DNA of 64,000 nucleotides from Sedimentisphaerales bacterium (GTDB lineage: Bacteria; Planctomycetota; Phycisphaerae; Sedimentisphaerales; Anaerobacaceae). The notes beneath the pieces were generated by a model that did not search any database, had not been told where the DNA came from, and saw only the letters and a list, made by a program, of their open reading frames with translations. Positions 50,697 to 57,517 of the stretch are shown here, piece after piece; position 1 is the stretch's first letter; each line of letters opens with the position of its first letter. Location of the stretch: positions 4,064,001 through 4,128,000 of the forward strand of contig OY970194.1 in the NCBI GenBank assembly GCA_963708075.1, read 5' to 3'. The position numbers and the translations under genes are program-made.

Positions 50697-50741
50697 GTAG
50701 GGTTATACCCCATAGAGTAGGGGCGACCCATGGCGTAGCAT
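50697..50741 (+). promoter_or_regulatory. Palindromic box plus promoter
   Basis: GTAGGGTTATACCCCAT, TAGAGT-17-TAGCAT. Confidence 0.78.
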
Positions 50742-50843
50742 GCCTGCAATGCAGCAGCAAGCCCAAAGACTCAGCCAAAGCAATGGGGCTCCAATATGCG
50801 AAGGCGGCAGTACTAGCCACGATGATGGTCATAGAAAGTATAT

Positions 50844-53800
50844 ATGTCAGTTTGCGTAGAAGCGCATATTAGTCCGCTTCAGGTTCCCGGCAATCTGATC
50901 CACATGCTGCGCCGCCACGCCGAGGAACGTCCGGATCAGCCTGCATTTATTCATCTGCTCGATGGCCAGTCTAATCAAGCGGTCCTGACGTACGCCCAGT
51001 TCGACCAGCGGGCCCGCGCCATCGCTGCCCACTTACAGAACATGGGCCTTACCGGCCGGCAAGTGCTGTTGGTGTATCCGCCCGGCCTTGACTTCATTAC
51101 GGCCTTCTTCGGTTGCCTGTACGCCGGTTGCGTGGCGGTGCCAACCTACCCACCGCGTCGCCATCGCATATTAGATCGCTTCCACGCTATCGCCGCCGAT
51201 GCCGAGGCCAGTATCGCCTTGAGCACGTCTTGCGCCATAGCTCAGTTCCAATTCATGATTGGGCACAAAAACGGTCAAGCAGCCGCTTCCTCCCAGATAC
51301 GATGGTTAGCCACAGACGAGATTCCAGATGACTTGGCCGAGCAATGGAGCGAACCTGCCATCGCTTCCGACACGCTTGCTATGCTTCAGTACACCTCAGG
51401 CTCGACCAGCCAGCCAAAGGGCGTCATGCTCAGCCACGCGAACCTCATTGATAACACCCGTACCATCCTCCATGCTTTCAGGGTGCAGCCCGAGGACAGT
51501 GGCGTGTTCTGGCTGCCCACGTACCATGATATGGGGCTGGTGGGCGGCGTCCTTATCGATGTGTTCGCCGGTGCCACAAACGTCCTCATCTCACCAACCG
51601 ACTTCCTCCAGAAACCCATCACCTGGCTGGCCGCTATCAGCAAATACCGGGCAACTATCTCCGGCGGACCCAATTTCGCCTACGACCTTTGTGTCCGCAA
51701 TATCACCGACGAGCAACGAGCCACCCTTGACCTTTCCTCCTGGGCACTGGCCTTCATCGGCGCCGAACCCATTCAGCCCGCAACGCTCGAACGCTTTGCC
51801 GCCGCATTTGCCCCCTGCGGCTTCAAACCCAGCGCCTTTTATCCCTGCTACGGTTTGGCGGAGGCGACGCTCATGGTCAGTGGCGCGCGACGTGGCAGCG
51901 GCGCGACCGTACAAGCCTTCCACGACACGGCGTTGACCGAAAATCATGTCGAGCCTGTGCCCAACGGTAATGGCCAGGCTCGTCGCCTGGTAGCCTGTGG
52001 ATCGCCCGTCGACACTATGCGAGTGGTAATTGTCAACTCAAAGACCCACACTGAGGCCGCCCCCGGCTGCGTGGGTGAAATCTGGGTTGCCGGAGCGTCA
52101 GTCGGCCAGGGGTACTGGCACAACCCCCGCCTGACCAGCCGTTCCTTCAACGCCCACCTGAGCAACACGGGCGAAGGCCCGTTCTTACGCACGGGCGACC
52201 TGGGTTTCATGAGCGATGGCCAGCTTTATGTCACCGGCCGGCGGGAAGACCTGATCATCGTCCGCGGCCTGAATCGCTATCCACAGGATATCGAGGCCAC
52301 GGCTCGCATGAGTCACCCGCTGCTGGAAGTCGGCTACGGGGCCGCTTTTGCCGTGGATGACCACGGCAGTCAGCGACTCGTTCTGGTACAGGAGGTCAAG
52401 CACAACGGGAAGATGGATTTGAAGCTGGTGCTGGATGCAGTTCGCATGGCGGTACTCGATGAGCATGACTTGGCACTGGACACCATCGTGCTGGTACGAA
52501 GCGGCACGATTCCCAAAACCTCCAGCGGCAAGGTACAGCGTCACGCCTGTCGCGAGGCATTTCTCCGTGGAGAACTTAAGACCCTTGCCGAATACAGCGG
52601 CCTGATGGTCGAGAATGCTGACCCCAGCGACACCATCAGCCCCGGCATCAAAGGCATCGATGCTTCCATTCCGCATCCCGCACCGAATTCTTCGCAATTA
52701 TCCGCTTTTACTGCCATCTGCCAGCACGCCCACGCCTTGGCAGGTGCGGCTCTGCCCGCCCTGACACCCAATACACCCATCATCGCTCTGGGCCTCGATT
52801 CGCTGCAGCGTCTGGAACTCGTTGCTGCGATGGAGAAGACCTTCGGTGGCTATATGCCCGATGCGGCGTACTGCCAGGTGCAGACATTGGGAGAGCTGGC
52901 TCAGGCCGTGCAGAAGCACCTGATCGATGGTCCCAAGTCAGACGTCCCAGCTGGCCAGATTCTGCCTGAACACTATGACTTCGCCCAGTTCCCCGAATAC
53001 GCTCAGTTGAAGCGTCAAGAGCGAATGCTGCTGGCAGTGACCGGTGACAATCCGTATTTCCGTGTTGACCAAGGCGGAGCCGGAAGCGCAGCATGCATCG
53101 ACGGGCGTCAGCTCATCAATTTCTGCGTCTATGACTATGTCGGCATGTCCCACGATCCGGAGGTCGCCGCTGCCGCCAAGTCTGCGATAGACCGCTACGG
53201 CACCGGCGCCGGCGCCAGTCGGTTGATATCCGGCGAAAAGCAGGTGCATCGTGATTTGGAGCAGGCCCTGGCCGCGTTTCTGAATGTCCCTGCTGCTATC
53301 GTGTTCGTCTCCGGCCATGCTACCAATGTCACCACAATCGGTCACCTGCTGGGACCGGACGATCTGATCCTCCATGACACTCTGGCGCACAACTCGATTA
53401 TCCAGGGCGCCGAGCTTTCCGGCGCGACCCGTCGAGCCTTTGCCCATAACGACTGGATGGCGATGGATGCGGTGTTGTCCGAAGGTCGCCACCGATATCG
53501 CCGCGTACTGATCGCCATCGAGGGCGTGTACAGCATGGACGGTGACTTCCCCGAACTTCCACGTTTTGTGGAACTTAAGAAGAAGCACAAGACGCTGATA
53601 CTGGTCGATGAGGCGCATTCGCTGGGAACCATGGGGCCAACCGGCCGGGGCATCGGTGAGTACTGGGGCGTAGCCCGGGCTGACGTCGATCTGTGGATGG
53701 GCACGCTCTCTAAGTCGTTAGCCAGTTGCGGCGGATACATCGCCGGCTCGGTCGAACTGGTCGAATACCTCAAGTACACAGCCCCAGGGTTTGTCTACAG

Positions 53801-56146: not shown

Positions 56147-56423
56147 CGCCGACCGGGATGCGTTACGACTGAACCAGGGTCGCGCGCTGGCAGTGGATGC
56201 GTAAACGGCGGATGCCACGACCCAGCGCCCGCCACGGACTGAACTGGAGCGTGCCCCAGATGCTGAGCATGGCGTGAAGCGGGCGCAGCGACGCCTTCGG
56301 CCAGACGCTGCAGTAGCGGTTTTCGGACCGGGGCCGGAAGCGAGTCTTGAAGTGATAGATGCCCGGCGTATCAAGGATGAAGTTTAGATAGTGGTGCGCG
56401 ATCCGGATATAGGTGTGGATCAG

Positions 56424-57517
56424 TCATGGCAGCATCCTGCCCGGGTCGCCGGGAGTTCCGAGAACCCCTGGTATAGGAGCAATACGCTCAAAGCCACCCC
56501 GCTTGGCATACCATTGGGCCGTTTCGCGCAGGCGTTCAGCCAGGGCGGCCGCGGGCGACCAGCTCAGGTGTGTGCGAGCTTTCGCGGATGAGCACATCCA
56601 CGACCCGGCCAGGGCTTCAGTCATCTTGTCGCTGTTCACCCAAGCGGGGCGCTGCCGGATCCGCCCTATCGCGTCACCGCAGAGCCCAGCCAGTCGCACC
56701 AGTGGCCCGGGCAGGTGTACTACGACGGTGCACGCTTCTTTCCCAATGCTGTGGCCATTACCTGTCCGAGTTCGGCGTATGTCGGATAGTCATCCGCTGC
56801 CATGAAGTAGATGCCTTGCCCAGGCGATCCATTGGGGTGCAGGCGCTCGCCTTTCTCGGCTGCAAGGAGCAAACCCTCGACCAGGTCGGCTACGTGGATC
56901 AGCGAGAAGCATCGCTCGTCCAGACCCGGCACAACATGGATACCCCAGCGTGCGATCGGCCGGAACATTTTAAGCATGCCCCTGTCACCGGGACCAAAGA
57001 CCATCGGCGGACGTACAATACTGATCGGCACCGCTGTGGCATATCTGGCTGTGGCCTGTTCTCCGGCCAGCTTGCTGCAACCGTAAGCTGAAACAGGCAT
57101 CGGCGCATCGCTTTCTACCCGAGGTCGGCCAACGGCGCAAGGCCCCGCTGCGGCCAGCGAGGACACCACTACTAACACCGGCTTGTCAGTGCAGTCAGCG
57201 CAGGCGGCAGCGACGGATTCGATACCACCTGCGTTCACACGCAGGAAATCGTCTGTCCGCAGCGCCTTCGTCAGCCCGGCCAGGTGGAACACAATACCGG
57301 CCTGCGACACCGCCAGTGCCCGTCCAATGCTGGCCCCATCGGTCACATCGCCAGTGACCAACTGAGCGCCGGCCGACCTCAGATCCTCGATGCACGAGGT
57401 GGCTCGCACCAGACATGACACCCGATCGCCAAGCTCGGTCAGCCGTTGTACCAGGTGCCGCCCGATGAAGCCACTGGCCCCTGTCACCAGCACGGGTTTT
57501 GGAACCCTATTGTTCAT
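56424..57517 (-). CDS. NAD(P)-dependent epimerase/dehydratase-family SDR (CerR candidate), -1 frameshift near 56731
   Basis: TGASGFIG, VFHLAG, VSSLAA, YGCSKLAGE (YxxxK), RPP.VFGP.D; continues into ORF 56424-56699. Confidence 0.85.

Follow-up and report, generated by a model that had tools for sequence, protein, structure and literature searches.

Within positions 50697..57517 of the 64,000-nucleotide stretch of Sedimentisphaerales bacterium DNA analyzed here (the window), a domain profile search of the open reading frames located every part that a first-pass annotation had listed behind a boxed promoter, namely a FAAL-ACP-oxoamine synthase fusion, a DUF4833 lipoprotein, a GNAT and a convergent SDR. 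The core genes of the cluster stand as described there, and its start moves ~4.6 kb further 5', to 46040; an ABC-ABC-radical SAM-GT block (46040-50270), absent from the earlier list, co-travels with the cassette in relatives. The features are as follows.

46040..47005, + strand: ABC transporter ATPase (DrrA/NodI-like), accessory cassette part (PF00005, 7e-32)
47002..48115, + strand: ABC-2 permease, interrupted by an extra base (+1) near 47314 (PF01061, 2e-27)
48254..49243, + strand: radical SAM/SPASM protein, accessory (PF04055 and PF13186)
49305..50270, + strand: GT-B-fold protein of no named family (predicted structure and fold comparison)
50696..50714, + strand: conserved 19-bp box (nine window matches)
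50844..54195, + strand: FAAL-ACP-alpha-oxoamine synthase fusion, RkpG/SgaB clade (domains and tree)
54222..54788, + strand: DUF4833 predicted lipoprotein (PF16117, 1e-31)
54819..55022, + strand: orphan 3' tail of a second GT-like gene (77% identity to 49305-50270)
55019..56146, + strand: predicted bCerS/YghO-family N-acyltransferase (GNAT), intact (PF00583, 7e-6; full-length similarity; tree)
56488..57517, - strand: extended SDR, CerR-like, convergent (PF01370, 2e-33)
31496..36348, - strand: CheB-CheR-PAS (split), PAS histidine kinase and LuxR-type response regulator, the last at 31496-32401 (Pfam)

By domain profiles, the open reading frame 50844-53984 combines AMP-binding (aa 22-425), PP-binding (625-689) and Aminotran_1_2 domains. 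The best NCBIfam models for the AMP-binding domain are of FAAL type (1e-104 to 1e-138) and score above the CoA-ligase models, yet all lie below their own cut-offs; this domain is 34% identical to E. coli AasR (2e-73) and adjoins an ACP with its Ppant serine, the arrangement sought for a FAAL/AasR-type enzyme. The FAAL/ACP catalytic motifs YTSGST, GDLG, KTSSGK and LGLDSL are present, and ACP Ser653, PLP Lys957, His849 and the Asp922/His925 motifs are kept. All of the 120 best homologues are likewise fusions, of ~1000-1180 aa and at least 69% identity. A single inserted base near 53944 puts the C-terminal ~80 residues of the PLP domain into a different frame (53962-54195); in 25 of 26 related loci the domain reads through to its last residue.

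Alpha-oxoamine synthase (AOS) phylogeny was reconstructed as a quick tree of 55 rows and, by a careful method, from a 24-row subset that left out 31 of them; neither held a WcbT row, and PfSgaB of Pseudomonas fluorescens MYb115 was represented by a stand-in encoded on a Pseudomonas plasmid (L035), which by eye is close to the PfSgaB sequence printed in SI Fig. S6 of PMC12134224. Compared in this way and by profile with Spt, BioF, Kbl and RkpG, as the first-pass annotation had suggested, the PLP domain groups with RkpG: in the careful tree it joins RkpG and the SgaB-like protein of L035 in a 9-row clade (support 100/100), and in the quick tree the RkpG/SgaB clade comprises 27 rows (SH-aLRT 99). 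It is 56% identical to L035, a PKS-partner AOS, 49% to RkpG, 31-35% to three Spt references and 32% to Kbl. By eye, it shares ASRLxSG, SGHATN, HNS, DEAHS, GTLSK, GFxYSVG, QPILYP and ARxRFF with PfSgaB, and differs in a YDY motif, whose D recurs in RkpG, where PfSgaB has YNY.

These placements do not uphold the earlier reading of the domain as a Caulobacter-type Spt. One clade with known Spt is rejected among the 24 rows (AU p 3.8e-7), and an intact orthologue (L009) scores 270/500, 309/640 and 213/670 bits, under the cut-offs of the Spt models NF047599/600/603, which the E. coli and Sphingomonas references exceed. Nor is the domain a member of the Kbl clade; Kbl, the only other AOS of the source genome, is encoded elsewhere, adjoining a threonine-dehydrogenase-like gene, and in a related genome (G029, 97% complete) no AOS was found besides the fusion-type one. 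PfSgaB is a proven serine palmitoyltransferase that is normally paired with a PKS, and is reported to accept L-Ser, but neither Ala nor Gly, for condensation with C16-CoA or either of two longer acyl-CoAs (PMC12134224). Because this characterized member of the RkpG/SgaB clade takes L-serine, the ceramide reading likely survives by a different route; serine use by the window domain is argued by analogy from that one protein, at ~56% identity through the stand-in.

The GNAT is similar over its full length (29-36% identity) to E. coli YghO (30%, 1.6e-63), the Sphingomonas protein (2.7e-56) and other Spt-linked GNATs. Seven of eight references, YghO and the Sphingomonas gene adjoining spt among them, match it within the published limits for bCerS (E<=1e-30, coverage>=50%); the Prevotella match (2.7e-24) falls short of them, and the reference set lacks the Caulobacter sequence. 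No relative was returned by a PDB sequence search. Linkage is as expected of bCerS, the fusion lying nearby in 12 of 13 genome loci and the SDR in all 13. On full-length similarity and on the tree, the protein belongs, as first suggested, to the bCerS/YghO family of predicted N-acyltransferases.

The identification of the SDR as CerR-like holds in part. The protein retains GxxGxxG and YxxxK, resembles reductases adjoining Spt and bCerS genes, is convergent with bCerS in 13/13 genome loci and is open in 23 of 24 related loci; an intact orthologue matches cluster SDRs of Streptomyces (7e-52), Aureispira (5e-50) and Rubrobacter (4e-29), and the Streptomyces grouping has support 88. Against this, its matches to CerR of Sphingomonas and E. 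coli (2e-19 and 9e-17) are short of the 1e-30 filter, and the CerR-like branch of the SDR tree has a support of 37 and includes one outgroup. CerR of Caulobacter is reported to be periplasmic (PMC11087976).

Among the accessory genes, the ABC ATPase and permease adjoin the fusion or the GT gene in 8/13 genome loci and, where metagenome loci are at least 10 kb long, in 22 of 31; the radical SAM gene occurs in 43 of 80 GT-selected metagenome loci and in none of the 13 bCerS-selected genome loci. The AlphaFold model of the GT-B protein (pLDDT 82.6) resembles UDP-GlcNAc 2-epimerase (VIA, Z 18.2, rmsd 3.5, 279 aligned) and TagF (Z 15.4), with a Foldseek value of 1e-9, which makes the protein a candidate head-group or nucleotide-sugar enzyme. 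Its homologues are 81-92% identical under source names spanning several phyla; the gene was found in 0 of 400 sampled Planctomycetota, and a PDB sequence search with the GT-like alignment gave nothing significant. The DUF4833 protein, with a signal-like N-terminus from the ATG at 54222 that ends in A-A-G-C, was earlier counted as a cluster member; it is present and is a passenger, its rare co-occurrence (1/13 genome loci, 1/80 metagenome loci) ruling it out as a core enzyme. An Atlas search returned further DUF4833 clusters only. Related loci also carry PAP2_3-family genes (L012, L015, L018 and L182), a family that presumably includes inositol-phosphoceramide synthases, MprF-like transferases (L014, L165 and L177) and ketosynthases (23/80 metagenome loci).

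The cassette is patchy, being found in none of 23 congeners, and mosaic: by sequence identity its GNAT block is nearest L012, and the fusion and SDR are nearest L009/L018. At 54831-55022, a stretch of 63 aa repeats the end of the GT-like gene further upstream (77% identity); the segment 54817-56146 is 90.8% identical to L012, where the GT gene is immediately 5' of the GNAT, and the flanking fusion and SDR are ~90% identical to L009/L018. The orphan tail is, to judge from these identities, the scar of the recombination that delivered the GNAT.

The suggestion that this lineage lacks a characterized sphingolipid pathway has to be tempered: of 400 Planctomycetota, 173 carry bCerS homologues, and Spt-like genes from 138 Planctomycetota MAGs were already published in 2024 (PMC11334938). 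Our literature searches, partial in coverage, found no paper describing the fusion or a Planctomycetota ceramide pathway, and a Nostoc study is a caution that similarity alone may mislead (PMC8895605). FAAL-ACP-SgaB-type fusions occur in 3/400 Planctomycetota genomes; the same three hold the closest bCerS matches, and their bCerS and that of the window form one 100/100 clade. The fusion and bCerS are unlinked in G365, G238 and G404, and G365 encodes another AOS, which the quick tree places toward Spt. In 9/12 sampled Planctomycetota bCerS loci the AOS stands alone and belongs to the canonical Spt side. Five of the eight Planctomycetota genomes with the RkpG/SgaB AOS clade show no bCerS match at 1e-20, and this clade therefore appears to work without bCerS as well. 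GT-selected loci with an RkpG/SgaB-type AOS carry bCerS in 10/14 cases and the SDR in 10/14, the four without bCerS being contigs of <=11 kb. A canonical-type Spt occupies the same neighbourhood in 6/80 metagenome loci, and Spt and SgaB-type AOS therefore look interchangeable.

The boxed promoter is well supported, with nine boxes in the window versus 0.00 expected (100 shuffles) and a -10-like TAGCAT (50736-50741) 21 nt 3' of the box at 50696-50714. The source genome holds 15 boxes at <=3 mismatches, and box clusters occur in 9/23 congeners. The box precedes the fusion with the same spacing in L155, L156 and L161; it would be optional, since of the 14 metagenome loci that have a GT-to-FAAL junction three show it ahead of the fusion, and a narrow search found none in genome-derived loci. 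No consensus promoter turned up at the box in a scan for sigma-70 sites, in keeping with a promoter that depends on an activator, and the box is likely a putative activator site centered near -43. The first box (36918) lies near the regulator genes at 31496..36348, whose position makes the CheB-CheR-PAS protein, histidine kinase and LuxR-type response regulator candidates for its cognate regulator. Stress induction of the cassette, as earlier suggested, may be read from the other genes behind the same box.

Taken together, we estimate at about 65% the probability that a horizontally moved cassette, of which the window holds a copy frameshifted in three genes, follows a hybrid route, every step of it inferred from homology, to a membrane lipid of dihydroceramide type. 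The FAAL domain would adenylate a free fatty acid and load it onto the in-line ACP, and the SgaB/RkpG-clade PLP domain, replacing canonical Spt and dispensing with the PKS usual to SgaB, would join acyl-ACP and L-serine to give 3-ketosphinganine. The bCerS-family GNAT would add the N-acyl chain and the CerR-like SDR would reduce the ketone. Among the weakest steps, the GT-B protein and the radical SAM enzyme probably make or add a head group, and export of the lipid may fall to the ABC-2 pair; the fusion operon is probably driven by a LuxR-type activator via the box. The ceramide route proposed in the first-pass annotation is thus retained in its FAAL, ACP and oxoamine synthase logic, its bCerS GNAT and its CerR-like SDR, and loses its Caulobacter-type Spt.

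The same logic could yield another product if the PLP domain took alanine, glycine, cysteate or an unusual acyl chain; a 1-deoxyceramide, a sulfonolipid or another N-acyl amino-ketone or alcohol would then result. The choice of amino acid is not readable from sequence, the YDY motif is unlike PfSgaB, and the ketosynthases and MprF-like transferases of relatives suggest varied products; the remaining catalytic motifs, however, equal by eye those of PfSgaB, reported as serine-selective, the neighbourhood also hosts canonical-type Spt, and a serine hydroxyl would offer a target for GT-B or PAP2 decoration, so that we consider such a product unlikely, at perhaps one chance in a handful. Less likely still, in our estimation, would be a lipid serving, in the role proposed for rkp/wcb-type loci, as carrier or anchor of an exported surface glycan and not as bulk membrane ceramide. 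The nearest annotated AOS relatives do lie in capsule loci (L026, L027 and L035), the GT-B protein is like TagF, capsule polymerase domains and UDP-GlcNAc epimerases, and the cassette includes an ABC-2 exporter; yet the scanned window ORFs include no kps/wcb-type capsule genes, a single GT-like gene is thin for a polymer, and neither GT nor ABC-2 lies near the core in L009, L010, L015 and L018. We give hardly any credence to the fusion being a BioF (biotin) enzyme with incidental neighbours, as many database labels imply. JGI calls many homologues 8-amino-7-oxononanoate synthase and bioF is the top NCBIfam AOS model (354 bits for the intact orthologue), but the cut-off of this model (TIGR00858) is higher, at 426, bioF is likewise the top model for RkpG and for the SgaB-like protein, no bioB above cut-off was found in the source genome, synteny with lipid genes is conserved, and grouping with BioF is rejected (AU p 1.3e-10).

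Independent of the product is the state of the window copy. In the permease an A-run near 47314 is longer by one base (+1), the SDR is broken near 56725 (+2) and 56507 (-1), and as assembled the copy is predicted to be unable to work because the fusion is left without its C-terminal ~80 residues, among them the RLRFF arginine motif. These frameshifts may be assembly errors or real decay. That the copy is a decaying pseudo-cluster is a serious contender, at somewhat under even odds: frame-breaking indels affect 3/8 cassette genes, a CheB-CheR gene nearby is split, the orphan GT tail is a sign of recent rearrangement, and the background is a frame switch in 5/82 orthologues, with nine switches in 34,553 aa, six of them in two adjacent genes. 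Every break, however, is a 1-2-base indel with no nonsense substitutions, one indel lengthens an A-run, and the fusion, SDR and permease indels are each missing from the relatives compared, including L155 (97.3% identical), which lacks the extra permease base. Synonymous changes relative to L155 exceed non-synonymous ones (69 versus 43), the N/S ratio of the fusion is 0.76 on the window branch and 0.77 for L018, and a one-contig genome of 92.8% completeness would fit residual long-read error.

Returning to the dihydroceramide-type reading, the nearest precedent is the AasR-AcpR-Spt route with bCerS (YghO/aca) and CerR (epi) of Caulobacter crescentus, E. coli BL21(DE3) and Sphingomonas (PMC9386255, PMC11087976). 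Like it, the cassette clusters an acyl-AMP ligase, a dedicated ACP, a PLP condensing enzyme, a bCerS-family acyltransferase and an extended SDR; unlike it, the cassette holds the first three functions in one polypeptide, its PLP domain is of another clade (AU p 3.8e-7), its ACP has no significant AcpR match (E 1.5), it adds GT-B and radical SAM genes, and it has the ABC-2 pair where the E. coli and Sphingomonas clusters adjoin lptF/lptG. Its AOS shares a clade with those of PfSgaA/SgaB/SgaC (PMC12134224) and Sinorhizobium RkpA/RkpG/RkpH, but no PKS (SgaA/RkpA) is seen among the scanned window ORFs, and the acyl chain would come from the fused FAAL-ACP. In contrast to the sga/rkp-type loci L026 and L035, in which no bCerS is annotated, the cassette has one, as does Acidisoma L027, and by BLAST its extended, CerR-like reductase matches neither RkpH nor the SgaC-like SDR. 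The Spt-like clade B clusters of Black Sea MAGs from uncultured lineages similarly place an Spt homologue near bCerS and CerR, and some Spt-like hits there are parts of longer proteins; unlike our cassette, the main text describes neither a fusion nor a FAAL (0 hits for 'fusion'/'fused'; PMC11334938).

A broader proposal, which we advance tentatively and think rather doubtful as a whole, is that the standard bacterial ceramide route has a second, non-orthologous way in through SgaB-type synthases, which when fused to FAAL and ACP would act as a sphingoid-base synthase in a single protein, travelling between phyla along with bCerS, a CerR-like reductase, GT-B, radical SAM and an ABC-2 exporter, yielding an undescribed decorated ceramide under a LuxR-type stress regulon and missed by canonical-Spt surveys. 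The surprise is limited in that the chemistry is known, Planctomycetota are already predicted producers and the window copy is broken as assembled. If the dihydroceramide-type reading is true, Caulobacter-type and PKS/SgaB-type sphingolipid routes would be combined in one cassette, one polypeptide would convert free fatty acid and serine to a long-chain base, many proteins labelled 8-amino-7-oxononanoate synthase would probably be lipid enzymes, and the highly conserved orphan GT-B family would be a candidate ceramide head-group enzyme.

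Every part that the first-pass annotation had listed for a putative ceramide cluster (box, FAAL-ACP-PLP ORF, DUF4833 protein, GNAT and convergent SDR) was found in the window, whose source genome spans 7.5 Mb in one contig. As assembled, the features read as follows, and a 63-aa duplicate of the upstream GT-like gene's tail sits before the GNAT.

Upstream of the fusion: ABC permease, with a +1 near 47314
50696-50714: box, a conserved 19-bp element
From 50844: FAAL-ACP-PLP ORF (the fusion), last ~80 residues lost through a +1 insertion near 53944
DUF4833 protein: N-terminus lipoprotein-like
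55019-56146: GNAT
Convergent to the GNAT: extended SDR, with indels near 56725 and 56507

The most likely reading (probability about 0.65) is a hybrid route in which the fusion would convert a fatty acid through acyl-AMP and acyl-ACP to 3-ketosphinganine, the bCerS-family GNAT would then N-acylate, and the SDR would reduce, followed by optional decoration and export. N-acylation before reduction is the order proposed for Caulobacter in PMC11087976. The cassette would work like the Caulobacter/E. coli route, except that its entry enzyme lies outside the Spt family; this enzyme belongs to the clade of the SgaB/RkpG system but lacks a PKS partner. A literature search, with one key 2022 paper and one supplement outside its coverage, found no paper on this combination.

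The PLP domain is 56% identical to L035, a plasmid-borne Pseudomonas alpha-oxoamine synthase (AOS) that adjoins a type I PKS, 53% to a PKS-fused Planktothrix AOS and 49% to the Sinorhizobium AOS of L026, which we take, from its context (PKS, AOS, SDR and capsule genes), to be RkpG; the Spt references from E. coli, Sphingomonas and Prevotella reach 31-35%, BioF 33% and Kbl 32%. No NCBIfam cut-off for Spt, BioF or Kbl was reached by an intact orthologue of the fusion, nor by RkpG or L035. A careful 24-row tree unites the domain with RkpG and L035 at 100/100, and a quick 55-row AOS tree agrees. On the 24-row tree, union with canonical Spt (AU p 3.8e-7) and with BioF (AU p 1.3e-10) was rejected; of the earlier proposal for this domain, distinctness from BioF stands and orthology with canonical Spt does not. 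Peters et al. 2025 (PMC12134224) show that PfSgaB, an AOS that works with an iterative PKS, forms 3-ketodihydrosphinganines and prefers L-serine almost exclusively; the PfSgaB sequence printed there is, by eye, close to L035 and has the catalytic motifs of the window domain, except for YDY in the window versus YNY.

A strict search placed the window's AOS clade in 8 of 400 genomes. The window's genome has no bioB above cut-off, and its sole other AOS is Kbl; G029 has no AOS besides the fusion, and the extra AOS genes of G404, G456, G458 and G459 are placed in the Kbl, BioF or SgaB clades. Two quick-tree placements count against this tidy picture, namely one G365 AOS on the Spt side (55-row tree) and L099 (G238:C2:1532752-1533873), a 1112-aa ORF whose AOS domain joins none of the four clades (Spt, BioF, Kbl, SgaB).

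Over its full length the GNAT aligns with E. coli YghO (30%, 1.6e-63), listed in PMC9386255 as the cluster's N-acyltransferase, and with a Sphingomonas gene adjoining spt (29%, 2.7e-56); other Spt-linked GNATs align in the same way. Its proposed bCerS membership was upheld with the filter of PMC11334938, passed for seven of eight references. Homologues of bCerS occur in 173 of 400 Planctomycetota, and among 12 such loci inspected, nine have an adjacent stand-alone AOS and eight also an SDR of the window's kind (35-41%). The GNATs of the window and of G365, G238 and G404 share one clade at 100/100 support, its bootstrap not fully settled. These three are the genomes in the sample that carry FAAL-ACP-SgaB-type fusions, and in them fusion and bCerS are unlinked; five other genomes carrying the AOS clade gave no bCerS match. 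L114 of G365 holds two tandem bCerS homologues of different sub-clades (9131-11540).

The top-ranked plasmid match of the SDR is that of a Streptomyces AOS-bCerS-SDR cluster. Two cluster SDRs gave scores of 1e-50 to 1e-52, proteobacterial CerR only 1e-17 to 1e-19, and neither RkpH nor an SgaC-like SDR was matched; the SDR tree is poorly resolved, and CerR-like is a fair label. An MprF-like (LPG_synthase_C) transferase adjoins or is fused to the CerR-like SDR at L177:11652-13814 (-), L014:11159-12289 and L165:17217-18347; the product there may be an aminoacylated ceramide.

A species-genome scan yielded 16 loci, 13 with the window's cassette (12 titled Planctomycetota, one Burkholderiales) and three from Thermoleophilaceae with a stand-alone AOS. 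The 13 carry the fusion (12, the exception being a 4-kb contig), convergent SDR (13), GT-like gene (nine), ABC pair (eight), DUF4833 (one) and radical SAM gene (none). Eighty metagenome loci were picked by the GT-like gene alone; the 31 of at least 10 kb hold ABC (22), SDR (21), bCerS (21), radical SAM (19), ketosynthase (18), FAAL (13), window-type AOS (11) and canonical-type Spt (three), and this co-carriage of ABC, SDR, bCerS and radical SAM genes makes 46040-50270 part of the same gene neighbourhood. L225, L228 and L230 add ketosynthases, two reductases and a phosphopantetheinyl transferase to the set of fusion, bCerS, SDR, GT-like and ABC genes, and may build their own acyl chain. The fusion family is large: its best 120 matches are all ~1000-1180 aa with the same domains and at least 69% identical, the named ones mostly annotated 8-amino-7-oxononanoate synthase.

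The 321-aa orphan GT-like protein has a predicted GT-B fold (pLDDT 82.6; Z 18.2 to UDP-GlcNAc 2-epimerases, 15.4 to TagF), and all 51 aligned members match Epimerase_2 weakly (best 2e-5); a modelled GT-B fold alone does not assign function. This family (49305-50270; L155-L234) is without a Pfam name, closely tied to ceramide-type genes and has 7036 matches in all, the best 120 being 81-92% identical, with source names that include Gemmatimonadota, Acidobacteria, Syntrophobacteraceae and Deltaproteobacteria. Relatives' loci also hold PAP2_3, MprF-like, ketosynthase and phosphopantetheinyl-transferase genes, and we infer that the accessory genes would serve head-group building and export.

The GNAT is present in one of 60 relatives and none of 23 congeners. 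DNA identities show a mosaic origin for the window's cassette: its fusion and SDR are ~90% identical to the cassette loci L009/L018, and its GT-tail plus GNAT 90.8% to L012 versus 84% to L009 and 77% to L018. The frame breaks of this copy are 1-2-base indels found in none of the relatives compared; among related loci, 25 of 26 keep the PLP frame open throughout and 23 of 24 that of the SDR. L155, 97.3% identical over 5.8 kb, has an intact permease and differs by 69 synonymous and 43 non-synonymous codons, and the genome background is lower, with a frame switch in 5 of 82 orthologues (19 stretches, four congeners). We lean towards assembly or sequencing error for these breaks, decay being a serious, less probable alternative.

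The box occurs nine times in the window, within 36918-63154, versus 0 by chance, and 15 times in the genome at up to three mismatches. Box clusters occur in 9 of 23 congeners, all lacking the GNAT, and the box lies upstream of the fusion in three of 14 loci with the GT-to-FAAL junction. At most sites it lies 21 nt upstream of a TAnnAT hexamer, a distance commonly seen where an activator overlaps -35. Genes of the boxed stretch include DUF5670, DUF2934, CsbD-like, DUF883-like, DnaJ-type and acetate kinase genes; a LuxR-type two-component set directly precedes the first box, and elsewhere a bacterioferritin-like gene follows one (read by eye). The suggested stress induction is plausible from this gene content. 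The box defines a small regulon island (nine sites in 26 kb, three more near 72-81 kb, G000:C1 72268-81322), rich in small DUF5670, DUF2934, CsbD-like and FlgM-like genes and with a candidate regulator; further copies lie at G000:C1 2062530-2062820 and 5129420. Another frameshift in the island splits a CheB-CheR-PAS gene (33606-36348, -) within its CheR domain (models 2-99 and 95-193). Genes for pgi, pgm, glycogen phosphorylase, phosphoketolase and two acetate kinases lie at 2050-14260 and 61850-63130, and a second phosphoketolase-like ORF lies beyond the window (G000:C1:4134407).

On an Acidisoma plasmid from a cultured strain (L027, 9089-13134), a stand-alone SgaB/RkpG-clade AOS lies inside a capsule locus alongside a short SDR, a homologue of bCerS and a gene of the sterol-desaturase family, a natural test case for an AOS of this clade paired with bCerS.
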